A stretch of 55,083 bases of DNA, taken from positions 1 to 55,083 of IMG/VR virus record IMGVR_UViG_2923307698_000002; one strand, written 5' to 3'. The stretch comes from a virus. Taxonomy: Duplodnaviria > Heunggongvirae > Uroviricota > Caudoviricetes. The translations under genes and the position numbers were made by a program. Positions 1 through 42,100 of this stretch are shown in pieces (within the stretch, counting starts at the first letter, position 1; every line of letters begins with the position of its first letter). Below the pieces are notes generated by a model. It did not search any database and was not told the origin of the DNA. It saw only the letters and a program-made list of their open reading frames with translations.

Positions 1-927
1 TCAGCTTTTCGCCAGAACGGTGACGGCCTTATCGAGTTTTTGCCATCCGCAATAGGTGATTGCCCTGAACGCTGTAGCGTCATTCTGGAAAAGGCTAACC
101 GTCCCTGATTCGGTTTTTATTACCGCCTCATCAGTTGGGGTTATAACTGTGGCTTCAACGTTAATAATCAGCTTTTGAGCGTCTATCAGCATCATGCGAT
201 CCGCCTGTTCGCTCACAATTACCGGTATTCTCAAAAGCTCTATCTGCCAGAACTCAGCATCAGTAAGCTGTAAGGCGTTTTCTACGGGCAAGATTAGCGA
301 CGACGTGGCAAGCGTGTTACCGTTCGCTATGTGCTTTTTGAAAAGCTCTATGAAGTTTTCGGCCTCATCAGCACCATTAAGCACGCCCTCAGGGGATACG
401 CCCGCCACCTCCTGGTCACTGGAAAGAAATTTTTTATCTATTTCTTTCACCGATTCCGATGTGATCAAGTCTCTGATCGCTGAATTGGTACAAGGGGTGC
501 TAAATTTGATTAGCTCGTTATTCAGCATCACAATAGCGCCAAGTTTGCACAGTTTTAGCGCACTTTCGTTTACTTCTCCCTCTTTGACAGGGATTTCTTC
601 GGCTTCTTTAAGCCATTTACTACCCTTGCCTGATATTGACTGCAATTTTGCGCCAAACGGAAGATTCAGCGCGCTGCTGATTAGCTTGCCTGGTACAGAC
701 TGCGAAAAAATATACTCGCCAAGCTCTCTTACTATCGGCTCTGCCACCAGCGACGGCATATTATCCGTAGTCATTCCGGCAACAATGGATTTTTCAAGAA
801 ATTTCGATACTGCCGGATCATTTTTTTTCGTCATTTCAATTGCGTCTGCATGGCTGAATTTACACGATGTAAGCACGCTGGCGGCGCGAACTGCCGACAC
901 GCCTTTCATGTTTTTAGAAATCATCAT
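1..927 (-). CDS. phage major capsid-like protein (HK97 fold family), satellite-encoded
   Basis: Complete 308-aa ORF; AGGAGG 6 nt upstream of ATG at 927; C-terminal region resembles HK97-family capsid C-terminus by eye; lies directly downstream of terS with no terL or portal between. Confidence 0.5.
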   Translation of the reverse strand: MMISKNMKGVSAVRAASVLTSCKFSHADAIEMTKKNDPAVSKFLEKSIVAGMTTDNMPSLVAEPIVRELGEYIFSQSVPGKLISSALNLPFGAKLQSISGKGSKWLKEAEEIPVKEGEVNESALKLCKLGAIVMLNNELIKFSTPCTNSAIRDLITSESVKEIDKKFLSSDQEVAGVSPEGVLNGADEAENFIELFKKHIANGNTLATSSLILPVENALQLTDAEFWQIELLRIPVIVSEQADRMMLIDAQKLIINVEATVITPTDEAVIKTESGTVSLFQNDATAFRAITYCGWQKLDKAVTVLAKS

Positions 928-1086
928 CTTCTTCCTCCTGGTAACATGGGGTTAGGGTTTCGTGAAAATATGGCATCAGAACAGCGGCAGCCTGTAACCG
1001 TATTTCTGTTGGCTGCTGCTTGTCGTTCATGATTTCCGTGAGTACATCAATAGGGTCTGTGATGTATTCGCTCATAGTTCGCTACC

Positions 1087-1575
1087 TCAGTGTTTTAAGC
1101 CAGTTGGTGGCTTAGGGATGGGGAACCGATTTGAGGAGACATTAGCGGCATTGAGTTTTTTAACCTCTTTTTTCCCAATGCTGCCGATCTTGCGGTGGGT
1201 GAACTGGGCCAGCTTAAACGCGGCATCTAAAGCCAGTTTTTGATCTGTGTCCATGTTGTCAATCAGTATCCTGCCCATTGCTTTGATGGGGTCGGGTAGG
1301 CCGTTATCCATCATCTCAATGGTGTTAATTGATGCCCGTTCCGGTGTAACTTTTTCGGTAACTTTCTTTGTAACTTTTTTCGGTTTTGTAACCTGAAAAG
1401 TTACATCAGAAGTTACAGCCTTAAGATACTTTTTCACCTCCGGATCATTGGATAGCTGCCAGCCTTTAACCCTTGCAGTCTTTTCGCTGTATCCCGCATG
1501 TATCGCGGCTTCCGTTGGATTTGTGCCCTTTGATAACGCATCAGCAAACCGCTTTTTTTTGGTCGTTAATGCCAT
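1087..1575 (-). CDS. terminase small subunit (P27-like family)
   Basis: Start placed at internal ATG 1575 (MALTTKKKRFADALSKG...) with GAGG RBS; the ORF track extends to 1713 but the upstream part lacks an RBS; N-terminal HTH-like motif typical of P27-type TerS. Confidence 0.75.
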   Translation of the reverse strand: MALTTKKKRFADALSKGTNPTEAAIHAGYSEKTARVKGWQLSNDPEVKKYLKAVTSDVTFQVTKPKKVTKKVTEKVTPERASINTIEMMDNGLPDPIKAMGRILIDNMDTDQKLALDAAFKLAQFTHRKIGSIGKKEVKKLNAANVSSNRFPIPKPPTGLKH

Positions 1576-1702
1576 GCAAAAACCTCGTTTTGAGGGGGTG
1601 TAACTTTTCGTGTAACTTTTTTGAAAAGCAAAATTTTCTATGAATGAGACGGGGGGCGGTGTCCAGGGCGATCGACTTTCCGGCCGGAACACTCCCCCCC
1701 TG

Positions 1703-1864
1703 TCATTGCTCACCGAGTAACGAGATCAGGCCTTCAACTTCATCACTCAGCTTGTTTATTCGTGTCTCAAGCTCTGCGATCTTTTCCATCAATGGCGCTA
1801 TGGTGTCTCTTGTTTCCTCGCCAATGGCTTTAATGATGCTTGCCTCGCGTTCTGTGATAGCCAT
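1703..1864 (-). CDS. small coiled-coil hypothetical protein (53 aa)
   Basis: ORF below the 60-aa track cutoff, found by hand translation (MAITEREASIIKAIGEE...); ATG lies 3 nt after the upstream gene stop (TAAACAATG), suggesting coupling. Confidence 0.3.
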   Translation of the reverse strand: MAITEREASIIKAIGEETRDTIAPLMEKIAELETRINKLSDEVEGLISLLGEQ

Positions 1865-1867
1865 TGT

Positions 1868-2062
1868 TTACGCCTCACTTGTTGCAATGCCCAGGCGTTC
1901 GCGTAACAGTACGCGCGCAAGATGCCCTATTGTTGGTGTTGCCGCCCTGCCGTAGATACCTGATTCATTCATCCGGCGCACAATATCGAACTGCAACTTT
2001 TTAAGCTCGTTAAGGATTTCATGATCAATCATCACGGTAGCGCTTTGCTTTATCTCTTCCAC
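1868..2062 (-). CDS. hypothetical protein (64 aa)
   Basis: GTG start at 2062 preceded by AGGAGA at 7 nt; sits between replication and packaging modules. Confidence 0.4.
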   Translation of the reverse strand: MEEIKQSATVMIDHEILNELKKLQFDIVRRMNESGIYGRAATPTIGHLARVLLRERLGIATSEA

Positions 2063-2149
2063 TTTGTTTTCTCCTGATACTTATCATTGCATAACCAGTA
2101 TTTTCGATAGATTATCATTAATTAACCATCTTTGAAGATATATGAGATC

Positions 2150-2175
2150 GAAAAAAAGCCGGATTGCTCCGGCTA
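2150..2175 (-). terminator. rho-independent terminator after rep operon
   Basis: Hairpin GCCGG-attgct-CCGGC followed by T-run on the minus strand, downstream of the 81-aa gene. Confidence 0.45.
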
Positions 2176-2192
2176 TGTGCTCACTTCTTCGG

Positions 2193-2438
2193 TTATTCTC
2201 CAGCGCTTTTAACGTTGATGGTTGTTACCTGTTCCGCTTCGGCAATCTCCCGTTCTGTCAGCGTGGCAAAGTTTGCCGCCGCGGTGGTCATGAATGCGCT
2301 TATCAGTTCGGGATGCTCCTTCGCGTATCCTTCCCCCGCGTGGCGGTCTATCGTTCTGATTGCCACCTTTAAGGAAAGCTCTGTCATGTCTAACGCTTTA
2401 TATTTTGGCGCTGTCTTATCTCTGGTTTTTCTGTTCAT
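2193..2438 (-). CDS. hypothetical protein (81 aa), last gene of rep operon
   Basis: ORF immediately downstream of the iteron array; start uncertain (ATG 2438 or internal ATG 2387). Confidence 0.4.
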   Translation of the reverse strand: MNRKTRDKTAPKYKALDMTELSLKVAIRTIDRHAGEGYAKEHPELISAFMTTAAANFATLTEREIAEAEQVTTINVKSAGE

Positions 2439-2640
2439 TCCCCACTACTCCCCACTTTTGCTCCCCACTTTTTGAAATTACCCACCGTCTCCCCACCTCT
2501 TTTTTTTGTGATTCTAACGTTATGTTTTTCAATATGTTTTTTACTCCCCACTTTTTTGGGTATATACAGGTGGGAAAGTGGGTAATTATGTTTCAATTTT
2601 GTTAAATTCCCCACTCCCCCCACTTTTACTCCCCACTTTT
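2439..2640. repeat. iteron array, putative satellite replication origin
   Basis: At least 7 copies of TCCCCACT(TTT) in direct orientation plus an inverted copy (aggtgggaaagtggg) and an AT-rich tract, immediately 3' of the rep stop codon. Confidence 0.6.
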
Positions 2641-4040
2641 TACAGCGGGCGCACGTCATCACCGTCAATAACGATTACGCCATCATTTTCCAGCTTGTAC
2701 AGCCAGCGCCGGAAGTGCTTCATCTCATACCCCAGCTTTTTCATATCGTCGCGGAGAAGGGCGATAGTGCACGCCTCCCCGTGTGCTGTTCGTGTTCTGA
2801 TGCACTGCCATAGCGCGGCGTGATTCTCCGTCTTGTTCCCTGCCTCCTCGATGCGCTCCAGTTCAACGGGAGGGCGCGGCTTATCCACCACCACCAGCGA
2901 CGTGATTAACTCCCCGTCAGCGTCGGTAAAAAGCTCCACCACGCGTAAGTCATATGCTGCTTCTTTGAGTTCCTCCGCGTCCTTCATTTTGGTACATGAG
3001 ATAACCAGCGCTTCGCTGCCTGCGTCCTCCCTGCGTATCCGGTATTCGGCGTCCAGTGATGCACGAAATGCACTGGAACCACGCGCCCCCTTTGTTTCAT
3101 CCTTGCCGGAATGGTGAACCACCAGCACCGTTGCCCCTGTGCGCCGTTTCAGTTCGTCACACCCACGGATAAACGCCCCCATATCACGGGAATCATTTTC
3201 ATCATTGCCGCCAAAGCAGCGCGCCAGCGTATCCAGAATAATCATTCGAACCGGTTTACCCGTTTCCCGTTCCACCTGACGGGCAGCGATAACCATTTCC
3301 TCAACATCAAGCGGGGCAGCCGGAAAGATGGGACGGTTTACCAGATACAGATTTTTCACCTGCTCACCGTGCACAACCTCCCAGGCTTTTACACGACGCG
3401 GAACGCCGATACCGCCTTCACCAACCACATAGAGAACAGCGCCATGCGCCACCCTGCGGCCTCCCCACTGGCGGCCCGTGGAAACGTGACACGCCCACGA
3501 ACCCGCAAGGAACGATTTATATGAACCGCTCGCCCCGTATATGCTGCACAGCGATACCGCCGGAATAATCCCCTTAACCACGTAATCAAGTTGTGTGTCG
3601 TATCCGGCAGATCCCACGCTCATTGGTAGCGTGGTTTTTCGCTGGTGGTGTTTTTCTTCCCCTGGCTTTTTCCCCCGCTCCCGTTCCAGATATTCGCGCC
3701 AGTTCTCCCGCTTCTGGCTGTGCATCCCTTCGGGGTAATAATTCGCATCAGTTACACCCGCCGCCGCCAGCTTGTGCGCAATGGCATTAATATTTGATGG
3801 CCTGATGTGGCCTGCCTTGTACAGCCGGACACAATAGCGCCCCTCGTCGATGATTCTCAGGTCTGCCAGTTCATCCAGTTGATCATCAGCCAGCACAACG
3901 GGAGGCACATTATCGCCAGCCAGTCGCCCGTCCTGTTCCTGCCACTGTTTCGCATGTGCCCAGGCATCACTACCCGCAAAAATAATGACTTCGGTCATCT
4001 TGTCGTAAGGCTGTTTTTTTAAGTTCGGTGCGCTTTTCAT
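2640..4040 (-). CDS. replication initiator/helicase, RecA-like P-loop ATPase
   Basis: 466 aa; Walker A YGASGSYKS and Walker B-like MIILD; ATGA overlap with upstream gene; iterons directly downstream. Confidence 0.75.
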   Translation of the reverse strand: MKSAPNLKKQPYDKMTEVIIFAGSDAWAHAKQWQEQDGRLAGDNVPPVVLADDQLDELADLRIIDEGRYCVRLYKAGHIRPSNINAIAHKLAAAGVTDANYYPEGMHSQKRENWREYLERERGKKPGEEKHHQRKTTLPMSVGSAGYDTQLDYVVKGIIPAVSLCSIYGASGSYKSFLAGSWACHVSTGRQWGGRRVAHGAVLYVVGEGGIGVPRRVKAWEVVHGEQVKNLYLVNRPIFPAAPLDVEEMVIAARQVERETGKPVRMIILDTLARCFGGNDENDSRDMGAFIRGCDELKRRTGATVLVVHHSGKDETKGARGSSAFRASLDAEYRIRREDAGSEALVISCTKMKDAEELKEAAYDLRVVELFTDADGELITSLVVVDKPRPPVELERIEEAGNKTENHAALWQCIRTRTAHGEACTIALLRDDMKKLGYEMKHFRRWLYKLENDGVIVIDGDDVRPL

Positions 4041-4336
4041 TTCTTGCCCCTGAATCCGTTAATCATGGTTTTCAGCTTCTGGATGTTTGCCCGTGCCCTG
4101 GCGTTGCTGGTGGGCACGTTATGCGGCGCGGTCTGTACCAGAGAAAAATCACGCCGGAACTGATAAACAGGCATCACGCAATCATATTCGTAACCTTCAC
4201 GGCGGTAAGTTACGCACCGTCCCGCCACGCCCTTAATCATTACCGTGCCGCCGTACTGGTCGCGGTAAATATCACCGCGCGTAAATTTAGGGTGAGTGTT
4301 GCCACTGGCAGTTAAGCCAGAATATTTAAGTTTCAT
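4037..4336 (-). CDS. hypothetical protein (99 aa)
   Basis: Stop overlaps rep start (ATGA); part of minus-strand operon. Confidence 0.4.
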   Translation of the reverse strand: MKLKYSGLTASGNTHPKFTRGDIYRDQYGGTVMIKGVAGRCVTYRREGYEYDCVMPVYQFRRDFSLVQTAPHNVPTSNARARANIQKLKTMINGFRGKK

Positions 4337-4341
4337 TATTT

Positions 4342-4575
4342 TTATTCTCCGGTGTGCTGTTCGTTATATCTGTCGTGCAATAGATCTATTTCTTGCAGTT
4401 CCATTATTACAGGCTCAAGAAGCGTTATTAATGCTGTGGCAATTCTTGATTTTTGTTTGTCGCGTTCATTGTCGCCAAGTGTTTCAAGCCATATGCGCAA
4501 TATTTCGTACATACCTTCAGCGTAAGCAAGGGCACTAAATGCGCGGTCTATTGTTTCGTGGTAAATATCACGCAT
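4342..4575 (-). CDS. hypothetical protein (77 aa)
   Basis: ORF in tight operon arrangement. Confidence 0.4.
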   Translation of the reverse strand: MRDIYHETIDRAFSALAYAEGMYEILRIWLETLGDNERDKQKSRIATALITLLEPVIMELQEIDLLHDRYNEQHTGE

Positions 4576-4576
4576 A

Positions 4577-4798
4577 TTAATCCCCGTCCGTTGTTTTTCT
4601 TAAAACAGCTTCTGTCACGAAATCAGCATAGTTAGCGGCAATATCAAGAATATTTAGCCCTGTATCTCTGTGCTCATCAGTGCAAAGAAAGAAAAAAGCC
4701 ACCCGCATAATTTCAGATATTGACGAAAGCGCATCAGCCGCATCATCAGGAACGCCGGAAAATTCTTGTTTCAGGGAATTAAAACGATCATCACGCAT
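4577..4798 (-). CDS. hypothetical protein (73 aa)
   Basis: ATG at 4798 is 2 nt downstream of a G8 homopolymer on the coding strand. Confidence 0.35.
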   Translation of the reverse strand: MRDDRFNSLKQEFSGVPDDAADALSSISEIMRVAFFFLCTDEHRDTGLNILDIAANYADFVTEAVLRKTTDGD

Positions 4799-5013
4799 AA
4801 CCCCCCCCCATTTTCACAATCAGCAACAAGAATATTTTTAGCGTCATTCAGCGACCGCGTTGCGATGTATCGGATACATTCCAGGGCGAACTGTGTCCGG
4901 TCTTTCTGTTCTTCTCCCTGCGCAAGCTCTGCAGTGCATTCAATATCGATAAGCGCGTGCATCAGCGTAGTGAGCGCGGCGGCTGCTGCGTCCGGTGTGG
5001 TTTTATTGCACAT
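4771..5013 (-). CDS. hypothetical protein (80 aa)
   Basis: Start placed at ATG 5013 with AGGAGG at 6-7 nt; 3' end overlaps the next gene across the G8 tract. Confidence 0.35.
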   Translation of the reverse strand: MCNKTTPDAAAAALTTLMHALIDIECTAELAQGEEQKDRTQFALECIRYIATRSLNDAKNILVADCENGGGLCVMIVLIP

Positions 5014-5203
5014 GGCACACCTCCTGACGAATACGGGCGGCGAATACAGCAACACAACCGGACGGGCAACGGCTACGCGCTTCGCGTTCCGTCCAGGCGG
5101 TTACGTGGATGATTTGAGATTCTCCGGCACTCAGTGCCAGAAAACGCCACACAAAGGCCGTTTGTGTGTGTACAAGGTGTGGTATATGATTTACGGCAAC
5201 CAT
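5003..5203 (-). CDS. hypothetical protein (66 aa), first gene of leftward operon
   Basis: ATG 5203 with AGGAG at 5 nt. Confidence 0.3.
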   Translation of the reverse strand: MVAVNHIPHLVHTQTAFVWRFLALSAGESQIIHVTAWTEREARSRCPSGCVAVFAARIRQEVCHVQ

Positions 5204-5387
5204 AACGGCTCCTAGTTTACGTTGTTGGTTAGACGCCCCGTATGTGTTCCCGCACTGCGGGGTGTTGTTATTTGGTGCATCGCACCATCTGTTTTTAACC
5301 TATCAGCAAGTGAATCGCACTTCAAGCCTTTTTCTCTGAATTTTTTTTGTGTATACTGAATCGCACCAACTTAGAGAGGATTCTGTA
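5204..5387. promoter_or_regulatory. divergent promoter/operator region of the satellite
   Basis: Three copies of TG(A/C)ATCGCAC at 5279-5285, 5314-5320 and 5360-5366; palindrome CCGCAcTGCGG near 5251; TATACT -10-like element; between divergent operons. Confidence 0.45.
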
Positions 5388-5567
5388 ATGGCAACAGGTT
5401 CAACAAATAATAAGTCGCAACAGTTAAATGCCAGATTCCCGCATGATGTTGTTGCAGACTTAGAAAAAAATTTAGATGAAGGTGAAAGCAAAGCGCAATT
5501 TATAGTTACTGCCGTTAAAGGCGAAATCAAACGCCGCCAGCGCCGCAAGGCCAAAGAGCAGGAGTAA
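5388..5567 (+). CDS. ribbon-helix-helix (CopG-like) regulator
   Basis: ATG 5388 after AGAGAGGA; N-terminal beta-strand/helix pattern (QQLNARFPHDVVADLEK...AQFIVTAVKGEI) typical of RHH proteins; basic C-tail. Confidence 0.5.
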   Translation: MATGSTNNKSQQLNARFPHDVVADLEKNLDEGESKAQFIVTAVKGEIKRRQRRKAKEQE

Positions 5568-5609
5568 CCATCACCAGCGCCGTGGTGTGAGGTACTACGG
5601 CGCATTGCT

Positions 5610-5798
5610 ATGCAGGACAACACAATGACCGATAAAGAATTGACCAAAACATTATCACCGGCACGGAAAAGACGGCGCAGAAAGATAGAGCATGAATCAG
5701 AAAGATTCGCACCATGTGCTTTTGCCCTTGAGCAATTCCTTAAAGAGTACAGGGAAAAGCGCTCATTGCAGGTATGGCAACGAACTGAACCAGACTGA
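5610..5798 (+). CDS. hypothetical basic protein (62 aa)
   Basis: ORF downstream of the RHH gene; start may be the internal ATG at 5625. Confidence 0.3.
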   Translation: MQDNTMTDKELTKTLSPARKRRRRKIEHESERFAPCAFALEQFLKEYREKRSLQVWQRTEPD

Positions 5799-5885
5799 TT
5801 GCATTGCCCACCAGCCTGATAGCGGCTATCATCCCCGTGCTTATGTTTGGGATCACATACACATAAGGCGCAGCGGGTTAATTGT

Positions 5886-5912
5886 TCAGAAAGGCGGCTC
5901 CATATCGGGGCC
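5886..5912 (+). terminator. rho-independent terminator
   Basis: GC hairpin (gcggctcc...ggggccgc) followed by T6; lies between convergent genes. Confidence 0.4.
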
Positions 5913-5946
5913 GCTTTTTTCGTGTTTGTCATATCTGTGATACCCG

Positions 5947-6153
5947 TTAAGCAGCCGTTCCGCGTGCTTCCTCTTCGCGTTCTTTCTGCCAGGACAACAC
6001 ATCATCCTCATACCATCCGCGACGGCGTAAACCAACGCGAAAACCCTGCGGAAATTCTCCGGCGTTGATCATGCTTTGCAGCGTGCTGTCTGCCTTGATG
6101 TGGATAATTTTTTTTACTTCCTGGCGAAAGATAATTTTTCTGATTGCTTCCAT
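5947..6153 (-). CDS. alpA: AlpA-family transcriptional regulator/excision activator
   Basis: 68 aa; pattern IIRQ-EV...L...AGEFP...G.RR.GW.EDDV..W matches AlpA/Vis-type MerR-like HTH as recalled. Confidence 0.7.
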   Translation of the reverse strand: MEAIRKIIFRQEVKKIIHIKADSTLQSMINAGEFPQGFRVGLRRRGWYEDDVLSWQKEREEEARGTAA

Positions 6154-6282
6154 CGTGATTTACCTTGTGAATCCGGTGTATTCCGGTGACAAATACGGTA
6201 AATCATCGGATATGGGTAAAAACAGTTCCCACCGTTTTTAAACGGTATACACCGTTTTTTATATTGATGATTTGAAATGGAA

Positions 6283-6310
6283 TTATAAAAAAAGCGGCAT
6301 TTCTGCCGCT
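6283..6310 (-). terminator. rho-independent terminator
   Basis: 7-bp stem AGCGGCA/TGCCGCT with T-run on the minus strand, downstream of the 83-aa gene. Confidence 0.45.
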
Positions 6311-6320
6311 TCCAGGATTG

Positions 6321-6572
6321 TTACCGCCATTTTTTGGGCCTGCCTCCGATCTTCATAGATGCCGGACGTACGACCTTATCAATACTTACCGCCAGATTTC
6401 TGGAAGCGCCACGGGATACCAGAAAATCTACTACCTGTTTTTTTGATGGGGCCGTCGTTCTGTCCTCCGGATCGTAGGTTGACCAAAATTCATGCTGAAC
6501 CATCAGGGCCAGTTGCAGCCCGTCGCAATTGCATCTGATATTTTTTTGCATCTTAACGGTTTCATGTTTCAC
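6321..6572 (-). CDS. hypothetical protein (83 aa)
   Basis: ORF between alpA and int; basic C-terminus. Confidence 0.4.
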   Translation of the reverse strand: MKHETVKMQKNIRCNCDGLQLALMVQHEFWSTYDPEDRTTAPSKKQVVDFLVSRGASRNLAVSIDKVVRPASMKIGGRPKKWR

Positions 6573-6649
6573 GGCCTTGTCGTTAAATTTGATGCAATTA
6601 TACGACGGTTTTACATGGTTTTCGTAGTTTTTACTGGTTTTCTGTACAG

Positions 6650-7891
6650 CTACACGGCTCGGATACCCCTTTTACCACTGGCGAGGGTTACGCCCGTCGC
6701 CGCAGCCTCGACAAATTCGCCCCACCAGCGCATCAGCACGATGCGTTTTTCTATGTAGTTGCTCCGGTTGTATGCCCGTCTAACTTCGTTGGTGTCGACG
6801 TGGGCAAGTGCCGCCTCTATTACGTCCGGCTCGAATCCTTCCTCGTTCGCTGCTGTGCTGAATATGGCGCGTAATCCATGAGACACCAGCACGCCAGCGA
6901 ATCCCATACGCCGCAATGCTGCGTTAGCTGTCTGGCTGTTCATCGGCTGCTGTGGGTCTTTCAGACTTGGGAAAACGTAATTGCGGTGGTGGCTGATTGG
7001 TTTCATGGCCTCCAGCACCGCCATAGCCTGACCGGAAAGCGGGATAACGTGATCCCTGCGCATCTTCATGCGTCCGGCAGGTATCGTCCATTGCTTCGCG
7101 TCCAGGTTGATTTCATCCCACCGCGTTGATGACGCTTCGGCGGGACGGGTTACGGTCAGTAACTGCCATTCAATCAGTAATCTGGTCTGCCGTTCTGTTG
7201 CCGATACTGATAAAGCCTGCATAAGCTCGGGCAGCTGTTCGGGGCGGATTGTTGGCATATGTTTTTTTACAGGTGAGGGAAACGCCTTACGCACATTCAT
7301 AGCCGGATTGGCATCAATCAGCCCACTGTTGGCGGCGTAATCCATTACCTCATTAACGCGCTGTAAAACCCGCTTGAGTGTTTCCAGGTTGCCGCGCTCC
7401 TTGATGGGGGTAAGCACTTCAACGAACCTTCGGGCGGTGAGGGTATCTATTGGCGTGTTGCCGATGAACGGGAATACATATTTATCCAGCGAACGCCAGA
7501 TGTCTTTAATCGTGTTGGGGGCCAGATTCTGGCTGATTTTCACCTGGTACCATGCCGCCGCCACATTTTCGAACGTGTTCCCTTGTCTTCGGGCCTCTGT
7601 CTCTCTTTTTTGCCTCTCGTGGTCCTGTGGGTCAGTTCCGGCACTGATTAACGTCCTGTACTCGCTACGGCGTTTTCTGGCATCAGCCAGGGAAACATCT
7701 TCAAGCGATCCAAAACTCAGCAATATTCTTTTTTTGTCCGATGGTCGGTAGTAGGAAAATCTCCAGAGTTTTGATCCAGACGGTTTGACCAGGAGAAAAA
7801 GCCCTCCGCCGTCCTGCAGGGTGTACTCCTTTTGCGCTGGTCTGGCTGCTTTGATCTGCACTGTGGTTAATGGGTGTGTTTTTCTCGCCAT
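6650..7891 (-). CDS. int: tyrosine integrase, P4-like
   Basis: ATG at 7891 (MARKTHPLT...); N-terminal arm-binding-like domain and C-terminal catalytic domain with conserved R...H.LR...Y pattern; adjacent to tRNA fragment. Confidence 0.9.
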   Translation of the reverse strand: MARKTHPLTTVQIKAARPAQKEYTLQDGGGLFLLVKPSGSKLWRFSYYRPSDKKRILLSFGSLEDVSLADARKRRSEYRTLISAGTDPQDHERQKRETEARRQGNTFENVAAAWYQVKISQNLAPNTIKDIWRSLDKYVFPFIGNTPIDTLTARRFVEVLTPIKERGNLETLKRVLQRVNEVMDYAANSGLIDANPAMNVRKAFPSPVKKHMPTIRPEQLPELMQALSVSATERQTRLLIEWQLLTVTRPAEASSTRWDEINLDAKQWTIPAGRMKMRRDHVIPLSGQAMAVLEAMKPISHHRNYVFPSLKDPQQPMNSQTANAALRRMGFAGVLVSHGLRAIFSTAANEEGFEPDVIEAALAHVDTNEVRRAYNRSNYIEKRIVLMRWWGEFVEAAATGVTLASGKRGIRAV

Positions 7892-7925
7892 ATGTCTATG
7901 ATTCCACACGAAAAAACAGGGTTTT

Positions 7926-7975
7926 AGTTATACGGCTTTAGTTATACGCCAGCCCGTATAACTAAACGTATAACT
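7926..7975. promoter_or_regulatory. putative integrase arm-type binding sites
   Basis: Four copies of a 9-bp motif: AGTTATACG at 7926-7934 and 7940-7948, inverted CGTATAACT at 7955-7963 and 7967-7975, between int start and the att core. Confidence 0.4.
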
Positions 7976-8109
7976 AAAAAATCCGGCTGATAGCTTATAA
8001 ATCCGGTGATGTTCGGTGACTAAAAAACATAAAAAAACCCGCCAATCAAGTGATTAGCGGGTTATCCCTGTCTTATCCGGTGCTTTCCGGTGATATCCGG
8101 TGGGCGATT

Positions 8110-26402: not shown

Positions 26403-27455
26403 ATGAAAAATACTGTAAAAATAAACAGTGTTGATTTAATCAACGCTGATTGCCTGCATTTTATTCAGTCCCTGCCTGATGATTCCATTGACCTGATTGT
26501 TACCGATCCGCCTTACTTCAAGGTGAAACCCAACGGCTGGGACAATCAGTGGAAAGGGGACGAAGATTACCTTAAGTGGCTGGACCACTGTCTGGCCCAG
26601 TTCTGGCGGGTGTTGAAACCTGCCGGAAGCCTTTACCTGTTCTGTGGGCATCGCCTGGCATCTGATATTGAGATCATGATGCGTGAACGTTTCAACGTGC
26701 TTAACCATATCATCTGGGCGAAGCCGTCCGGACGTTGGAATGGGTGTAATAAAGAAAGTCTGCGCGCATATTTTCCTGCCACAGAGCGCGTTCTGTTTGC
26801 TGAACATTACCAGGGGCCATATCGCGGCAAAAGTGACGGCTATGCGGCAAAAGAAAGGGAACTCAAACAGCACATAATGGCACCGCTGATATCGTATTTC
26901 AGGGATGCTCGTGCCGAACTGGGTATAACGGCAAAACAAATTGCCGAAGCCACAGGTAAGAAAAATATGGTTTCCCACTGGTTTGGTGCCAGTCAGTGGC
27001 AGTTGCCGAATGAGGCTGACTATCGGAAGTTACAGGCACTGTTTTCCCGTATAGCGGCAGAGAAGTTTCAGGAACAACAACTGGAACAACCACACCACCA
27101 ACTGGTGGCATCTTATGATTCACTGAATCGTAAATATTCTGAATTGCTGGATGAGTTTAAATCTCTCCGGCGCTATTTCTCCGTATCAGTCTCCGTGCCT
27201 TATACCGATGTCTGGATGCATAAACCCGTTCAGTTCTACCCGGGTAAACATCCGTGTGAGAAACCGGCGGATATGCTCAGGCAAATAATCAATGCCAGTA
27301 GTCGACCTGGTGATCTGGTTGCTGATTTTTTTATGGGATCCGGTTCCACAATAAAAGCAGCAATGGCGTTGGGGCGTCGGGCCTTAGGTGTTGAGCTTGA
27401 GTCAGAGCGGTTTAACCAGACAGTGAAAGAGATAAACGAGCTGGTGGGGAAATAA
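26403..27455 (+). CDS. DNA methyltransferase (beta-class N6A/N4C amino-MTase)
   Basis: DPPY motif near N-terminus (IVTDPPYF) and SAM-binding-like FMGSGST near C-terminus. Confidence 0.75.
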
Positions 27456-27522
27456 TCTGGTGGCCACGTCAGGTGGCCTTTTTATTTCCATTACACAGCA
27501 CCCGCATCTGCGAGGTGGGGTT

Positions 27523-27738
27523 ATGAAATCCATGGATAAGTTAACAACGGGTGTCGCCTATGGCACCTCAGCAGGTAGTGCCGGGTACTGGTTTTTACAG
27601 TTGCTCGATAAAGTCACGCCCTCACAGTGGGCGGCAATTGGAGTGCTGGGTAGTCTGGTATTTGGCTTGCTGACGTATCTGACAAACCTTTATTTCAAGA
27701 TTAAAGAAGATAAGCGTAAGGCTGCGAGAGGTGAATAA
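27523..27738 (+). CDS. class II holin, S21-like pinholin with dual start
   Basis: MKSMDKL... with Met1/Met4 dual-start motif, two TM segments, charged C-tail; GAGGTGGGG RBS. Confidence 0.8.
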
Positions 27739-28235
27739 TGTCGCCATCATTACGCAAGGCTGTTGCTGCTGCTATTGGTGGTGGGGCAATTGCTATAGCA
27801 TCTGTGTTAATCACTGGCCCAAGTGGTGACGATGGTCTGGAAGGTGTTAGCCACATACCATACAAAGATATTGTTGGTGTATGGACTGTATGTTACGGAC
27901 ACACCGGAAAAGACATCATGCTAGGTAAAACGTATACCGAAGCAGAATGCAAAGCCCTCCTGAATAAAGACCTTGCCACGGTCGCCAGACAAATTAACCC
28001 GTACATCAAAGTCGATATACCGGAAACAACGCGCGGCGCTCTTTACTCGTTCGTTTACAACGTGGGTGCTGGCAATTTCAGAACATCGACGCTTCTTCGC
28101 AAAATAAACCAGGGCGATATCAAAGGCGCATGTGATCAGCTACGTCGCTGGACATATGCTGGCGGTAAGCAATGGAAAGGACTGATGACTCGTCGGGAGA
28201 TTGAGCGTGAAGTCTGTTTGTGGGGGCAGAAATGA
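27738..28235 (+). CDS. SAR endolysin (lysozyme)
   Basis: N-terminal Gly/Ala-rich signal-anchor-release segment ([18 protein letters not shown]) then lysozyme-like domain. Confidence 0.85.
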
Positions 28236-28693
28236 GCAGATTAACCGCGATTATCTCCGCTCTGGTTATCTGCATCATCGTCTGCCTGTCATGGGCTGCT
28301 AATCATTACCGTGATAACGCCATGACTTACAAAGAGCAGCGCGACAAAAACACCAGAGAACTGAAACTGGCGAACGCCACCATCAAAGACATGCAGATCC
28401 GCCAGCGTGATGTAGCGGCTCTGGATGCCAAATACACGAAGGACTTAGCTGATGCTAAAAAGCAGCTTGATGATTTGCAGCGTTGTGTTCGCACTGGCAA
28501 GTGTGGGCTGCACTTCAACGCCAGATGTCCCGCGAATGGAGCGACCAGCACCGGCAGCTTGGGCGATGTTACCAGCCCCCGACTTAATGACTCCGCTGAA
28601 CGGGATTATTTCACCCTTAGAGAGCGAATCGTCACAGTGACTAAACAGATTAGTTATCTGCAGAACTATATCGTCACCCAGTGCATTATGTAG
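28232..28693 (+). CDS. i-spanin Rz
   Basis: ATGA overlap with endolysin; N-terminal TM then coiled coil. Confidence 0.75.
28452..28640 (+). CDS. o-spanin Rz1 (lipoprotein) embedded in Rz
   Basis: +1-frame ORF inside Rz; signal peptide with lipobox-like ...ASVGC; Pro-rich mature region. Confidence 0.65.
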
Positions 28694-28732
28694 TATGTAG
28701 TATGTTGAGCTTTCTCACTAAAGGATGAAGAA

Positions 28733-28972
28733 ATGAATATATTAGATGATTTTGAAAAACATGCTGAAATCTATGGGTATCTCAAGGTATTGAAAATGGG
28801 AGCGATGCACTTAGGTGCAGACTTCAAAATTTCAGAGGCATTCTCACATGATAATGTGCTACCTCAATTGCAAGCATTCTATAAAAAAAAATATATAGAG
28901 AAAGAAGCACTTGAAGCGATAAACTGGTGGTCGTCACTGTCGCCGGAGTTACGAAACAAATTCGACAATTAG
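28733..28972 (+). CDS. hypothetical protein (79 aa), moron after lysis cassette
   Basis: AT-rich ORF with AAGGA RBS, followed by a strong terminator. Confidence 0.45.
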   Translation: MNILDDFEKHAEIYGYLKVLKMGAMHLGADFKISEAFSHDNVLPQLQAFYKKKYIEKEALEAINWWSSLSPELRNKFDN

Positions 28973-29010
28973 TATTTGAGTTTTTGATCTAACATACGTC
29001 ACACTTGAAA

Positions 29011-29034
29011 TGCCGCCTCCGGGCGGTTTTTTTA
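29011..29034 (+). terminator. rho-independent terminator
   Basis: Stem GCCGCC/GGCGG(t) with loop tccg followed by T8. Confidence 0.65.
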
Positions 29035-29454
29035 TTGCTATTACAAAGCCCACTCCCTACAGAGTGGCTTTGATAATGGCTTATACCCTACACGGGATAA
29101 CTTAACTGATATCCCTTTTAACGGATAAAGGTATTCAAGCCTGACACATCATGCGCTGTATCGTCGCCGTATTCCCGTATTAACAGAGACCGTAGCCCGA
29201 CGGGGAACTCCTTCTGCGAGAGTGTGCGGGAATAATCAAAAACGATGCACACCGGGTTTTTACCGCGTTTATGGTTCGCGGGTTTGTCCCTCATGCTCGC
29301 CAGTCCTGTGCGGGGGTGGAAGAAACAGGACACTTACACAGATTCTTGTGGGCACGATGCTATGCCTTTATGGATTATCCCGATGCCATTCATGCAAGGC
29401 GTTGTATCAGACGTTCGTCAGAGCTGTCAGGCTGACGGGTCCTCCCGGTGGGGT

Positions 29455-29490
29455 AGCCTGCCACGGGGCGGGAGCGTCGCGGAAAAAGGC
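29455..29490. promoter_or_regulatory. putative cos site (cosN-like)
   Basis: ACGGGGCGGGAGCGTCGCGG resembles the lambda cosN region and lies about 190 bp upstream of the Nu1-like gene, as in lambda. Confidence 0.4.
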
Positions 29491-29651
29491 TAGTTTTTGC
29501 ATTTTTATCGGCCACCATCATCTTTGCATCTTATTGATTGTTAATGGTTATTTATTTTTTATATGTCGAATTGAGCGGTTTTTGTTCGACATCGAACGCG
29601 TTTTCTTAAAGTTGTTCGCACGATGCATGTTTAAAGCTCTCCGGAGGAAAT

Positions 29652-30143
29652 ATGGATCATGAGTTGAAAAACTTGGTGCTGAATATTAATCAACTGGCGG
29701 CTTTATCTGGCCTGCACCGCCAGACTGTCGTGGCAAGACTGAAAAACATTCGTCCCGCTGGTGGACATGACAAACTCAAGCTATACCGGTTGACCGATAT
29801 TCTGACTGAATTTATGGGGTTACCACCGCCGGTTGCTGAGGGCGAAATGGATCCACATGAACGCAAAGCCTGGTATCAGTCTGAACGTGAGCGTCTTAAG
29901 TTCGAACAGGAAACGGCACAACTCATTCCGGCCAGTGATGTCAGACGGGAGTTTGCCATCTGGGCAAAAGCGGTCGTGCAGGTGCTGGAGACATTACCGG
30001 ATATTCTGGAACGTGACTGCGGCCTGCAGCCTGCCGCTGTGAGCCGTGTTCAGTCCATTATTGATGATCTGCGCGATCAGATAGCCCTGCGGGTGACCGA
30101 AGCAGGTGCGGATGATGAGGAGGAATTACAGCAGGAGGAGTAA
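29652..30143 (+). CDS. terminase small subunit (Nu1-like)
   Basis: N-terminal HTH-like region, acidic C-terminus; GGAGG RBS; immediately upstream of terL. Confidence 0.8.
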   Translation: MDHELKNLVLNINQLAALSGLHRQTVVARLKNIRPAGGHDKLKLYRLTDILTEFMGLPPPVAEGEMDPHERKAWYQSERERLKFEQETAQLIPASDVRREFAIWAKAVVQVLETLPDILERDCGLQPAAVSRVQSIIDDLRDQIALRVTEAGADDEEELQQEE

Positions 30144-32245
30144 TGCTGAATCAGGAAACCGCAAAGGCAGCACGAACCGATTCAGGTTATATCCTTCGCG
30201 CACCGAGACGAATGCGGGTTGCTGATGCCGTTGCTCAGTATATGCGGGTGCCCATGGGGGCCGGGAATTCAGTCCCGTGGGATCCGCTGGTGGCACCGTA
30301 TGTTATTGAGCCGATGAACTGCCTGGCTTCGCGTGAATACGACGCAGTGATATTTGTTGGCCCGGCACGAACTGGCAAGACTATCGGCCTGATTGACGGC
30401 TGGGTGATTTACAATGTGATTTGCGATCCTGCTGATATGCTGATCATTCAGATGACGGAGGAAAAAGCCCGCGAACACTCCAAAAAACGACTTGCCAGAA
30501 CGTTTCGCGTCAGCCCGGAAGTGGTCAGTCGCCTGAGTCCGAACAAAAATGACAACAACGTTTATGACAGAACATTCCTTGCTGGCAACTACCTGAAAAT
30601 CGGCTGGCCGTCAGTCAATATCATGTCCTCATCAGATTATAAATGCGTGGCGCTGACGGATTATGACCGTTTTCCGGAAGATATTGATGGCGAGGGGGAT
30701 GCCTTCTCTCTTGCCTCAAAACGTACCACCACATTTATGTCCAGTGGTATGACGCTGGTGGAGAGTTCCCCCGGCAGGGATGTGAAGGATGTGAAATGGC
30801 GACGGACTTCACCGCATGAGGCTCCACCAACCACGGGGATACTGTCGCTCTATAACCGTGGCGATCGCCGTCGCTGGTACTGGCCCTGTCCACACTGTGG
30901 TGAGTATTTTCAGCCCTGCGGCGATGTGGTTGCTGGTTTCCGTGATATTGCCGATCCCGTGCTGGCAAGTGAGGCGGCTTATATTCAGTGTCCTTCCTGT
31001 TCAGGACGGATTATGCCTGAACAAAAACGTGAGCTGAACGGACGTGGGGTCTGGTTGCGGGATGGTGAATCCATCAATGCGGATGGCAGTCGTTATGGTG
31101 ATCCCCGACGCTCACGTATTGCGTCATTCTGGATGGAGGGTCCGGCAGCTGCTTACCAGACACTCTCGCAACTCGTTTACAAACTGCTTACTGCAGAACA
31201 GGAATACGAGACAACCGGAAGTGAAGAAACACTCAAGACGGTTATCAATACCGACTGGGGATTACCTTATCTTCCCCGCGCCAGCATGGAGCAACGAAAA
31301 AGTGAACTGCTTGAGCAGCGGGCAGAGCCAGTTCCTTCCCGCAGTGTGCCGGATGGCATTAATTTCCTTGTGGCGACAGTGGATGTGCAGGCGGGACGTC
31401 ATCGCCGTTTTGTGGTTCAGGTAACGGGCTATGGCAGCCGTGGCGAACGCTGGATTATTGATCGTTACAACATTACGCAGTCATTGCGCGGTGACAGCGA
31501 CGGGGAGAGCCAGCGAATTGATCCGGCCAGCTATCCGGAAGACTGGGATGTCCTGCTGACGGATGTTTTTCATAAAAGCTGGCCGCTGGCCTCCGATCCT
31601 TCTCAACAAATGCGACTGATGGCAATGGCGGTGGACTCCGGCGGTGAAGACGGGGTCACTGATAATGCCTATAAATTCTGGCGTCGTTGCCGTCGTGATG
31701 GCCTTGGTAAACGTATTTACCTGTTTAAGGGCGACAGCATCCGGCGCGCAAAACTGATCACCCGTACATTCCCTGATAACACCGGACGAACGGGCCGACG
31801 GGCGCAGGCCGCAGGTGATGTGCCGCTCTGGCTTCTTCAGACGGATGCCCTGAAAGACCGGGTGAATAACGCGTTATGGCGTGACTCGCCAGGTCCCGGC
31901 TATGTGCATTTCCCTGACTGGCTGGGGAGCTGGTTTTACGACGAACTGACGTATGAAGAGCGGAGTAGTGACGGGAAATGGAGTAAGCCGGGTCGCGGTG
32001 CCAACGAAGCTTTTGACCTGATGGTGTATGCCGAGGCTCTGGTCATTCTGCATGGATACGAAAAGATCCGCTGGCCGGATGCACCGGAGTGGGCGAGCCG
32101 GGAAACCTGGCTGGAGTGTGTCCCGGACAGTACCGAACCGTCACCCTCACCGGAACCGGTATCCACGCCTGTTAAAAAACAAAAACGGAAGAAAACAGTA
32201 ACTGACGATGTTAACCCCTGGCTGACTTCCGGAGGATGGTTATGA
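30143..32245 (+). CDS. terminase large subunit (lambda A-like)
   Basis: 700 aa; Walker A GPARTGKT; size and position as lambda gpA. Confidence 0.9.
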   Translation: MLNQETAKAARTDSGYILRAPRRMRVADAVAQYMRVPMGAGNSVPWDPLVAPYVIEPMNCLASREYDAVIFVGPARTGKTIGLIDGWVIYNVICDPADMLIIQMTEEKAREHSKKRLARTFRVSPEVVSRLSPNKNDNNVYDRTFLAGNYLKIGWPSVNIMSSSDYKCVALTDYDRFPEDIDGEGDAFSLASKRTTTFMSSGMTLVESSPGRDVKDVKWRRTSPHEAPPTTGILSLYNRGDRRRWYWPCPHCGEYFQPCGDVVAGFRDIADPVLASEAAYIQCPSCSGRIMPEQKRELNGRGVWLRDGESINADGSRYGDPRRSRIASFWMEGPAAAYQTLSQLVYKLLTAEQEYETTGSEETLKTVINTDWGLPYLPRASMEQRKSELLEQRAEPVPSRSVPDGINFLVATVDVQAGRHRRFVVQVTGYGSRGERWIIDRYNITQSLRGDSDGESQRIDPASYPEDWDVLLTDVFHKSWPLASDPSQQMRLMAMAVDSGGEDGVTDNAYKFWRRCRRDGLGKRIYLFKGDSIRRAKLITRTFPDNTGRTGRRAQAAGDVPLWLLQTDALKDRVNNALWRDSPGPGYVHFPDWLGSWFYDELTYEERSSDGKWSKPGRGANEAFDLMVYAEALVILHGYEKIRWPDAPEWASRETWLECVPDSTEPSPSPEPVSTPVKKQKRKKTVTDDVNPWLTSGGWL

Positions 32246-39140: not shown

Positions 39141-42100
39141 TTTGGGGATTGATGCGGCAGAGTTTAAAAATGAAATTCCCCGTATCAAAAACCTTCTGAA
39201 TGGTGCAGCCAGCGATGCAGAACGGTCTTCTGCCCGTATGCAGCGTTTTATGGAGCGTCAGACTCAGGCCGCCCGGCAGACAACGCAGGCGGCTTCTTCG
39301 GCTGCAACAGCCGCATCCGTCCATGCGCAGACGGTGGAGAAAAACGCACAGGCTCATGAACGCATGGCCCGCGAGGTGGAGAAAACCCGCCAGCGCATGG
39401 AGGCACTGAGCCAGAAAATGCGCGAGGAACAGGCGCAGGCCATGGCTCTGGCGGAGGCTCAGGATAAAGCGGCTGCCGCGTTTTATCGTCAGATTGACAG
39501 TGTAAAACAGGCCAGTGCGGGGCTGCAGGAATTACAGCGTATTCAGCAGCAGATCCGACAGGCCAGAAACAGTGGCGGGATTGGTCAGCAGGATTATCTG
39601 GCGCTGATTTCTGAGGTTACGGCGAAAACCCGTGTTCTTACACAGGCTGAGGAAGAGGCTACCCGACAGAAAGTGGCGTTTATCCGTCAGCTTAAAGAGC
39701 AGGCAACCCGCCAGAATCTTTCTTCTTCTGAGTTGCTTCGTGCTAAGGCTGCCCTGCTGGGGGTAAGCAGTGCTGCAGAAGTGTATATCCGCAAAATGGA
39801 GCAGGCAGGAAAAGCAACGCATTCGCTGGGTCTGAAAAGTGCAGCGGCCCGTCAGGAGATAGGCGTTCTGATAGGTGAACTGGCCCGCGGCAATTTAGGT
39901 GCGCTGAGGGGATCCGGAATAACGCTGGCTAACCGTGCCGGGTGGATAGACACACTGATGTCACCGAAAGGCATGATGCTTGGCGGGGTTATTGGCGGTA
40001 TTGCCGCGGCTGTCTATGGTCTGGGTAAAGCCTGGTATGACGGTCAGAAGGAGGGGGAAGAATTTAACCGCCAGCTGTCGCTGACGGGGCATTATGCCGG
40101 AGTCACTGCCGGGCAGCTGTGGACGCTCAGTCGTGCTATTTCCGGGAATGGTATCACGCAACATGCTGCAGCCGGTGCGCTGGCTCAGGTGGTGGGGAGT
40201 GGTGCATTTCGTGGAAACGATATCGGTATGGTGGCGAGAGCTGCCGCACAGATGGAGCGATCGGTTGGCCAGTCGGTCAGCGATACCATAAATCAGTTTA
40301 AGCGGCTGAAGGATGATCCTGTAAATGCCGCGAAGGCTCTGGACAATGAGCTGCATTTTCTTACTGCCACTCAGCTTGAGCAGATACGCGTCCTTGGGGA
40401 ACAGGGGCGGTCCAGTGATGCGGCACGGATAGCCATGTCTGCACTGGCAGAGGAAACCGGTCGGCGTACTGCGGATATTGATAATAACCTCAATGCGCTG
40501 GGCAGTACGCTGAAGTATCTGTCTGATTTATGGAGTCGTTTCTGGGATGCGGCCATGAATATTGGTCGTGAAGACTCGCTGGATGAACAGATTTCCGCTT
40601 TACAGGAGAAAGTGTCGCGGGCGAAAAGACTCCCCTGGACGGCATCATCTTCTCAGGTTGAGTACGATCAGCAGCGTCTTAACGAGCTTCAGGAGAAAAA
40701 ACGCCAGAAGGATTTGCAGGATGCAAAAGAGCAGGCAGAGCGGAATTATCAGGAGCAACAGAAACGCCGTAATGCTGAAAATGCTGCACTGAACCGGATG
40801 AATGAAACGGAAGCAGCACGACATCAGCGTGAAATTGCGCGTATTAATGCCATGCAGTACGCCGATCAGGCTGTCAGGGATGCGGCGATACAACGTGAAA
40901 ATGAACGTTACGAGAAAGCCCTGGCATCCGGTAAGAAAAAAACACGCGAAACCCGTAATGATGAGGCCACCCGGTTATTGCTGCAGTACAGTCAGCAACA
41001 GGCACAGGTGGAAGGACAGATTGCTGCTGCAAGACAGTCAGCAGGCATTGCCACTGACAGGATGACAGAAGCGCATAAACAGCTTCTGGCTCTGCAGCAG
41101 CGCATCAGCGATCTGGACGGGAAAAAACTGACGGCAGATGAAAAGAGTGTGCTGGCCCGTAAAGATGAACTGATTCAGGCACTGACGCTGCTGGATGTAA
41201 AACAGCAGGAGCTTCAGAAACAGACGGCACTCAACGATCTGAAGAAAAAAACAATTCAGCTGACCAGTCAACTGGCTGAAGAAGAGCGCGCTCAGCGCCA
41301 GCAACATGACCTGGATATCGCCACGGTGGGTATGGGTGATCAGCAGCGGCAGCGATATCAGGTACAACTGAGTCTTCGCCAGAAATACCAGCAACAGCTG
41401 GAGCAGTTGAGGCGGGATAGTGAGCAGAAAGGAACATATAACACGGATGACTACAGAAAGGCCGAGCAGGCGCTGACGGAGAGCCTGAACCGACAACTGA
41501 ATGAGAATCGCCGTTACTGGCAACAGCTTGAAATTGCTCAGGGTAACTGGAAAAACGGTGCCATGCGGGCGTTTCAGAATTTCACGGCAGATGCGGATAA
41601 TGCGGCAGGAACTGCTGAGCAGATGCTTACAGCGGCATTTAACAGTGCAGGTAATGCACTGGCAACCTTCTGTACCACCGGAAAACTGAACTTCAAATCT
41701 TTTACCGCCTCGCTCCTTTCTGATCTAGCAAAAATCATGGCCAAGATGTCCATGATGCAGGCAGTTAAGGGGGTTGGTTCGGCGTTTGGCTGGGGGAGTG
41801 CAGCAACTGCCAGTGTGACGCCCAATGCTGATGGTGGTGTTTATCAGTCTGCTGATTTGAGTCGCTACAGTGGCACAGTGGTTAACCGTCCGACGTTTTT
41901 TGCTTTTGCAAAAGGTGCAGGTGTGATGGGGGAAGCTGGGCCTGAAGCCATTCTGCCACTGCGTCGTGGTGCTGACGGTAAGCTGGGGGTTGTGGCGGAT
42001 ATTGGTGGTTCAGGTATGGCGATGTTTGCCCCGCAGTACAACATTGAGATCAATAACGATGGCACGAACGGGCAGATAGGTCCGGCTGCCCTGAAGGTGG

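Follow-up and report, generated by a model that had tools for sequence, protein, structure and literature searches.

A phage 21-type lysis cassette with a diverged spanin allele, predicted to act by the pinholin/SAR-endolysin pathway, in an Escherichia coli prophage

Organization of the lysis cassette

We studied the lysis genes in a stretch of 55,083 nucleotides from a tailed virus (Caudoviricetes; IMG/VR record IMGVR_UViG_2923307698_000002), hereafter the window. The locus raises two questions: whether the genes at positions 27523-28693 would lyse the host by the pinholin and signal-anchor-release (SAR) endolysin route of phage 21 or by the lambda S/R route, and whether they tell what kind of phage carries them. 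Results of sequence analysis showed that the segment is fully filled by four compactly packed genes of the positive strand, S, R, Rz and Rz1. As judged from their sequences, they very probably form a late-gene lysis module working by the phage 21 pathway of pinholin, SAR endolysin and two-component spanin. A previous sequence-only reading had placed a four-gene lysis cassette at exactly these coordinates, which proved correct. The gene products (in amino acids, aa) were distributed as follows:

27523..27738, positive strand: S, long product, 71 aa, predicted antiholin with an extra Lys2
27532..27738, positive strand: S, short product, 68 aa, predicted pinholin
27738..28235, positive strand: R, SAR endolysin, 165 aa, with a GH24 lysozyme domain
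28232..28693, positive strand: Rz, inner-membrane spanin subunit (i-spanin), 153 aa, with an N-terminal transmembrane domain (TMD) at about residues 4-24
28452..28640, positive strand: Rz1, outer-membrane spanin subunit (o-spanin), lipoprotein precursor, 62 aa, wholly within Rz in the +1 frame

The first codons of S, ATG-AAA-TCC-ATG (Met-Lys-Ser-Met), give a protein N-terminus MKSMDK with in-frame ATGs at 27523 and 27532, the dual start that had been recognized before. The S stop codon TAA occupies 27736-27738 and shares one base with the ATG of R (TAATG), and the start of Rz overlaps the stop of R as ATGA; these overlaps are of the compact kind typical of lambdoid lysis cassettes. All four proteins fell in lysis families of PHROGs, and all four passed the curated cut-offs against which Pfam matches were judged. 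A mechanical list of open reading frames (ORFs) offered longer GTG-started versions of S (from 27460) and Rz (from 28220). They were rejected in favour of the ATG starts because these are the annotated ones in phage 21 and in RefSeq; for S, the GTG at 27460 was also discarded because it lies at the foot of a terminator-like hairpin at 27462-27478 (see below).

Comparison with phage 21 and with public genomes

The phage 21 reference was the curated genome OL657228.1, located via the R21 sequence, whose cassette occupies bases 39866-41036 and is annotated with the S21-71 antiholin (a dual-start product), the S21-68 pinholin, the SAR endolysin, the i-spanin and the o-spanin. The check proposed in the sequence-only reading, alignment with the S21, R21, Rz and Rz1 products of phage 21, was run as global alignments and gave 61/71 identical residues for S (85.9%), 157/165 for R (95.2%), 98/154 for Rz (63.6%) and 29/63 for Rz1 (46%). 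Phage 21 has the same four genes in the same order and with the same overlaps, i.e., TAATG, ATGA and an Rz1 that begins 220 nucleotides (nt) into Rz in the +1 frame, as well as an identical MKSMDK dual start, SAR segment and catalytic triad. The assignment to a pinholin/SAR-endolysin system rather than to the lambda S/R type was thus supported, both by the identity to S21 and R21 and by the SAR-like N-terminus of R; the cassette is of that kind because S had no lambda-S-type match and R carries the N-terminal SAR-like segment.

At the DNA level the cassette was 85.7% identical to that of phage 21 over window positions 27522-28624. Identity was about 73-83% in S and 90-100% in R; within Rz it was 90-98% over the first ~130 nt, fell to about 75% by 28363 and stayed at 61-77% onward to the Rz end. 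Because identity to phage 21 varies in this way along its length, the cassette is itself a mosaic. In sequence terms, the holin and endolysin are of phage 21 type, and the C-terminal half of Rz together with all of Rz1, the predicted spanin interaction region, is another allele. The flanks also differ: upstream, the window has a DNA methyltransferase gene and a terminator where phage 21 has pR', a terminator and two tRNA genes; downstream, it has a 79-aa ORF where phage 21 has bor on the opposite strand.

In a prophage of E. coli O25b:H4 (NZ_CP015085.1), the S, R and Rz proteins were identical to the annotated EssD (essD, WP_000839596.1), rrrD product (WP_021535405.1) and 'lysis protein' (WP_000088939.1). 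The embedded Rz1 ORF was identical too, but carries no annotation in that record, and the upstream methyltransferase and the downstream 79-aa ORF were protein-identical to those of the window. Among isolated phages, cdtI, ev243 and others encode a holin 100% identical to S, and cdtI and Ayreon share the methyltransferase-S-R arrangement. Most isolated phages matched only to about window position 28459, beyond which they carry another allele of the Rz C-terminal half and Rz1. The cassette is therefore an already known, intact module, already annotated in public genomes, and only its less common spanin allele is mildly unusual.

The holin S

The S protein matched Pfam family PF04971, 'Bacteriophage P21 holin S', with E=2e-35 and 121 bits against a cut-off of 26, and searches of Pfam and PHROGs gave no better match to a lambda-S-type or other holin family. 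The position of the second in-frame ATG equals that of the annotated S21-68 in phage 21, and the motif MKSMDK was unchanged relative to S21-71. That the dual start of S21 yields a longer antiholin bearing one more basic residue at its N-terminus has a basis in the literature (PMC9636201). In the short product, S68, the first TMD (TMD1, about residues 8-27) was weakly hydrophobic, with 60% Gly/Ala/Ser/Thr, and the second (TMD2, about residues 36-58) was strongly hydrophobic; only residues 31-60 rose above the threshold of a hydropathy scan. This layout agrees with descriptions of S21-68 (PMC9636201; bioRxiv 10.1101/2021.04.20.440580). A mutational study of S21-68 found the N-terminal Asp-Lys, the loop between the two TMDs and the Lys after TMD2 to be important (bioRxiv 10.1101/2021.04.20.440580), and in S all of these were conserved or conservatively replaced. 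From the 86% identity to S21, we infer that S would form nanometre-scale heptameric channels unable to release a soluble endolysin.

An RNA structure like sdi was considered as a control element of the S dual start and was dropped, as the fold of the region was no better than those of shuffled sequences; the equivalent region of phage 21 folded marginally (z = -1.8 against shuffles).

The endolysin R

The R protein matched the phage lysozyme family PF00959 in Pfam (E=7e-47) and gave full-length matches to the structures of the phage 21 lysozyme (PDB 3HDE/3HDF, E=6e-107) and of DLP12 RrrD (PDB 4ZPU, E=8e-108). NCBIfam held no model naming S, Rz or Rz1, and R matched its lysozyme-family equivalogs below threshold only. 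The catalytic triad, read from the translation, was intact as E35-X8-D44-X5-T50; a Glu-X8-Asp/Cys-X5-Thr triad defines the T4-type lysozymes, R21 included (PMC3556154; PMC9239132). A SAR domain has been described as a stretch of about 20 Gly/Ala-rich residues of weak hydrophobicity, preceded by one or two basic ones (PMC9239132). In R, Arg6-Lys7 precede a segment of about residues 8-26 in which 12 of the 19 residues (63%, counted by eye) are Gly, Ala, Ser or Thr. The N-terminus therefore fits the published description, and the Gly/Ala-rich SAR segment of the sequence-only reading was recovered. Residues 3-30 were identical to those of R21.

Cysteines were found in R at 52, 71, 132 and 160 only, none of them within the SAR segment. 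The activating thiol of the phage P1 endolysin Lyz belongs to a Cys in its SAR segment. R resembles Lyz in having an N-terminal SAR segment and the T4-type lysozyme fold, with a weak match to the structures 1XJT/1XJU (PMC3556154). In Lyz the middle triad residue is a Cys that stays locked in a disulfide before activation (PMC3556154), whereas R has Asp44 at this place and no Cys in its SAR segment. For these two reasons R is of the R21 type and not of the disulfide-caged type of P1 Lyz.

The Rz/Rz1 spanin allele

Rz matched PF03245 in Pfam (E=1.3e-39) and phrog_13, 'Rz-like spanin' (E=5e-68), and a hydropathy scan revealed a hydrophobic stretch over its residues 1-27. The lipoprotein gene said to be embedded in Rz in the +1 frame was likewise found: the product of 28452-28640 matched PF06085, 'Lipoprotein Rz1 precursor' (E=1.5e-13), and phrog_3198 (E=2e-19). 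Its start has the same offset within Rz as that of the annotated phage 21 o-spanin, and a Shine-Dalgarno sequence (AAGGA) precedes it, ending 7 nt upstream. Rz1 spans nt 221-409 of the 462-nt Rz gene, i.e., 0.48-0.89 of its length (L), which is close to the usual embedded arrangement, with an o-spanin gene reaching from 0.4-0.5 L to 0.9-1 L (PMC6139136). The Rz1 signal peptide ends in LASVG followed by Cys20, so that the lipobox is S-V-G-C, with positions -2, -1 and +1 fitting the consensus and the Ser at -3 outside it. The mature protein is Pro-rich and has no Cys beyond the C20 of the lipobox.

Likeness to the lambda spanins comprised the embedded +1 architecture, the N-terminal TMD of Rz, the lipoprotein signal and Pro-rich mature part of Rz1, a conserved PLNGIISP motif and the equivalents of Rz Cys99 and Cys152. 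As differences, Rz was about 66% identical to the lambda protein, Cys29 is present in lambda Rz1 and missing from that of the window, and the lipobox of the lambda-like phage 21 Rz1 is VVGC as compared with SVGC. Phage 21 Rz1 also has the Cys29 that the Rz1 of the window lacks. The Rz of the window has four periplasmic Cys residues (85, 91, 99 and 151) where lambda and phage 21 Rz have two; Cys99 and Cys151 align with the conserved Cys of phage 21 Rz, and Cys85 and Cys91 are the extra pair.

The allele formed by the Rz C-terminal half and Rz1 was detected at the DNA level in 83 of 5,426 complete E. coli genomes (~1.5%), at ≥99% identity in 24 of them. No phage record had an Rz with more than 80% protein identity, the best reaching 69% in Klebsiella phages. 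Five diverged E. coli copies, one of them annotated 'Rz1 family lipoprotein', kept the embedded Rz1 ORF intact with the C-terminal 35 residues almost invariant, which supports a real Rz1 gene under selection in both frames. The embedded gene is thus real, though automated annotation of identical public loci usually omits it. Among the six alleles examined, the Cys-less Rz1 was kept in all and the Rz C85/C91 pair in four; LASVGC recurred in three further alleles, and two others had LANVGC and LAVSGC.

The same allele sat behind different lysis genes in other E. coli prophages, either a class II holin with a lysozyme or a lambda-family holin with a GH24 endolysin:

Locus L005, 987-1448: the allele behind a lambda-family holin and a GH24 endolysin
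Locus L007, 960-1400: the allele behind a lambda-family holin and a GH24 endolysin
Locus L008, 918-1388: the allele behind a 'phage holin family protein' and a lysozyme

As its occurrence behind different holins and endolysins shows, spanin genes are exchanged as a module of their own, and the evolutionary history of the spanin half is distinct from that of the rest of the cassette. RefSeq annotates at these three loci the Rz frame only ('lysis protein'), the embedded Rz1 being usually missed.

Proposed lysis pathway

The window itself shows four genes and how they overlap, the families to which their products belong, and a near-identity of these products to experimentally characterized phage 21 proteins. 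Taking this identity together with published work on phage 21 (PMC9636201; PMC9239132; PMC6139136; bioRxiv 10.1101/2021.04.20.440580), we propose the following course of lysis. After induction, RNA polymerase modified by the antiterminator Q would pass terminators, among them the hairpin at 27462-27478, and enter S-R-Rz/Rz1. S would be translated from both starts, S68 acting as pinholin and S71 as antiholin, and both would accumulate in the inner membrane, where the extra Lys2 of S71 would keep its TMD1 in the membrane longer and so confer the antiholin action. R would be exported by Sec and tethered, inactive, to the inner membrane by its weakly hydrophobic N-terminal SAR segment. At a critical concentration TMD1 of S68 would exit the bilayer and TMD2 would build heptameric pinholes of about 2 nm, which would collapse the proton motive force. 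Depolarization would free the SAR segment, and R would refold to an active muramidase (E35/D44/T50) and degrade murein. Last, the complex of Rz in the inner membrane with Rz1, a lipoprotein of the outer membrane, would disrupt the outer membrane. Release of the SAR endolysin by a pinholin has been called 'the definitive test' (PMC9239132).

Alternative explanations

Several observations weigh against this pathway or some part of it. Ten of the 71 residues of S are not those of S21, and one of these exchanges, W27L, falls within the aromatic patch of TMD1; such substitutions could shift the timing of lysis. No significant RNA structure was found at the S dual start (window 27500-27560, z = +0.6 against shuffles), so that regulation of the S71:S68 ratio is unsupported. 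An insertion sequence (IS) upstream of Q (see below) might reduce expression of the late and lysis genes in this lysogen, two genes of the negative strand lie between Q and the lysis genes, and no late promoter was located. In the spanin pair, which is a diverged allele, the Ser at -3 of the Rz1 lipobox departs from [LVI][ASTVI][GAS]C and Cys29, which forms one lambda disulfide, is absent. Off-consensus spanin lipoboxes are documented, and one of them has been shown to be functional (PMC6139136). A spanin whose covalent architecture is unlike that of lambda and phage 21, with disulfides of the i-spanin only and an extra link through Cys85/Cys91, would account for the Cys-less mature Rz1 and the doubled number of periplasmic Cys in Rz, and both traits persist in the alleles compared above, the former in all six and the latter in four. 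In lambda genetics, however, either Rz C152 or Rz1 C29 alone is enough for spanin function, spanins with Cys in one subunit only are common (PMC6139136), and the equivalents of Cys99 and Cys151/152 are conserved. Because a single Cys suffices in lambda and single-subunit Cys is common, the allele fits the known mechanism; with the conserved Cys99 and Cys151/152 added, any difference amounts to a minor variation within it, and we regard a distinct architecture as unlikely. The more specific proposal, in which a Cys-free o-spanin with an SVGC lipobox is joined by an extra Cys85-X5-Cys91 disulfide, intra- or intermolecular, is in our judgement distinctly improbable.

The whole cassette could also be a silent relic, intact and unused for release like essD-rrrD-rzpD/rzoD of the defective prophage DLP12 in E. 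coli K-12, either because the prophage is defective or because late transcription is blocked. The gene names given by the NCBI pipeline, essD and rrrD, are indeed taken from the DLP12 copies, the cassette has matches in 5,088 of 5,426 E. coli genomes, many of them surely in remnants, and the IS-type transposase gene upstream of Q is absent from the O25b:H4 copy. Yet none of the four frames is interrupted, and each is identical to its counterpart in the O25b:H4 prophage; the prophage reaches from the integrase to the tail fibres, its head and tail module is complete, it is about 96% identical to isolated plaque-forming phages, and the IS truncates the 3' end of a yfdN/PerC-like gene only. Together these points make a relic very improbable. 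Still less probable, to the point of being nearly negligible, is that S is a canonical large-hole or generic depolarizing holin instead of a pinholin, as in the pairing of P1 LydA with the SAR endolysin Lyz. Hole size is not readable from sequence, and the ten substitutions relative to S21 include the one in the aromatic patch of TMD1. Against this, S is 86% identical to the type pinholin, its TMD2 differs at two conservative positions only, its length, two-TMD layout and pairing with an R21-type SAR endolysin are as in phage 21, and no lambda-type or other holin family matched it better. We met no evidence that contradicts the phage 21 pinholin/SAR-endolysin pathway as proposed; its support for this prophage, drawn as it is from comparison of sequences, would matter little beyond correct annotation.

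Prophage context and classification

The window was nearly identical to the prophage adjoining narP in E. coli O25b:H4 (NZ_CP015085.1). The order upstream of S was the Q-family antiterminator gene, two negative-strand genes, a 75-aa ORF, the DNA methyltransferase gene and the terminator-like hairpin:

23850-24215: Q-family antiterminator, upstream of the cassette (PF06530, E=4e-53)
26403-27455: DNA methyltransferase, directly upstream of S (PF01555; PADLOC type II methyltransferase, E=3e-152)
27462..27478, positive strand: terminator-like hairpin between the methyltransferase gene and S (pattern scan), stem GGCCAC, loop GTCAG, stem GTGGCC, then TTTTTATTT
28733-28972: 79-aa ORF downstream of Rz, with a good ribosome-binding site, at the place of bor in phage 21
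29012-29027: terminator-like hairpin after the 79-aa ORF (pattern scan)

The hairpin at 27462-27478 folded at -12.2 kcal/mol (z = -2.5 against shuffles), and Ayreon is annotated with a 'terminator' within the match spanning its methylase, holin and lysin genes. We infer that this hairpin would block read-through into the lysis genes unless the RNA polymerase is modified by Q. An Rfam scan of 23000-30500 at E≤1 returned one chance match to a long non-coding RNA only. A tandem heptamer, TAGTATG, begins at the Rz stop (28691-28704) and is present in two copies in the window and three in O25b:H4. The 79-aa ORF had no match in Pfam, PHROGs, NCBIfam or PADLOC. Past the second hairpin there is a non-coding stretch of about 600 bp, followed by a DUF1441 small terminase gene and the complete head and tail module. 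The stretch holds the start point of the mEp460 and Ayreon genome records (~29627), which is probably the cos site. It also contains a 139-bp segment (29152-29290) 93% identical to phage 21 bases 41542-41680.

The lysis module belongs to an apparently complete mEp460-like lambdoid E. coli prophage, which runs from integrase to tail fibres. The closest whole phages were mEp460, Ayreon and cdtI, to which, with their relatives, the structural and early regions were about 96% identical; the same ~96% holds over most of the prophage length against isolated, viable phages such as mEp460 and Ayreon. The genera differ: mEp460 belongs to Limmatquaivirus and phage 21 to Jouyvirus. When the window was compared by BLASTn with the complete genome of phage 21, only 8,435 of the 41,501 prophage bases (~20%) aligned. 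They fell in the lysis cassette, in the tail-tip genes M to J, which were 93% identical, and in a few further fragments, and the idea that the whole prophage is phage 21-like was rejected on this basis. The expectation that the cassette would help to classify the phage was consequently not borne out: one fifth of the prophage aligns with phage 21, the whole is mEp460-like and the spanin half recombines freely. Being a mobile module, the cassette is no basis for placing the entire phage in the phage 21 group, nor for linking a presumed 'helper' role to that group.

Neighbouring elements and insertions

A second integrase-bearing element lies beside the prophage on the negative strand, at window positions 1-8100, and probably is what the word 'helper' in the sequence-only reading referred to. 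Its recognizable genes were:

1-927, negative strand: capsid-family protein, cut by the window edge
1087-1713, negative strand: small terminase
2640-4040, negative strand: AAA_25 primase/helicase-like protein
6650-7909, negative strand: integrase

The element looks like a capsid-encoding phage satellite, and it is absent from the otherwise near-identical O25b:H4 locus. Relative to the O25b:H4 prophage, the window also has an insertion of about 1.3 kb upstream of Q, at 19300-20600, with one assigned gene:

19332-20219, negative strand: IS-type transposase ORF (phrog_157, E=2e-140)

Between Q and the late genes, two or three genes of the negative strand occupy 24234-25773:

24910-25773, negative strand: 287-aa protein matching the candidate anti-phage defence family PDC-S42 (E=1e-32) and phrog_3243
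Same group, negative strand: 143-aa protein in which a hydrophobic stretch was noted by eye, no family match, adjoined by an 87-aa ORF

This group at 24234-25773 is possibly a prophage-encoded defence moron.

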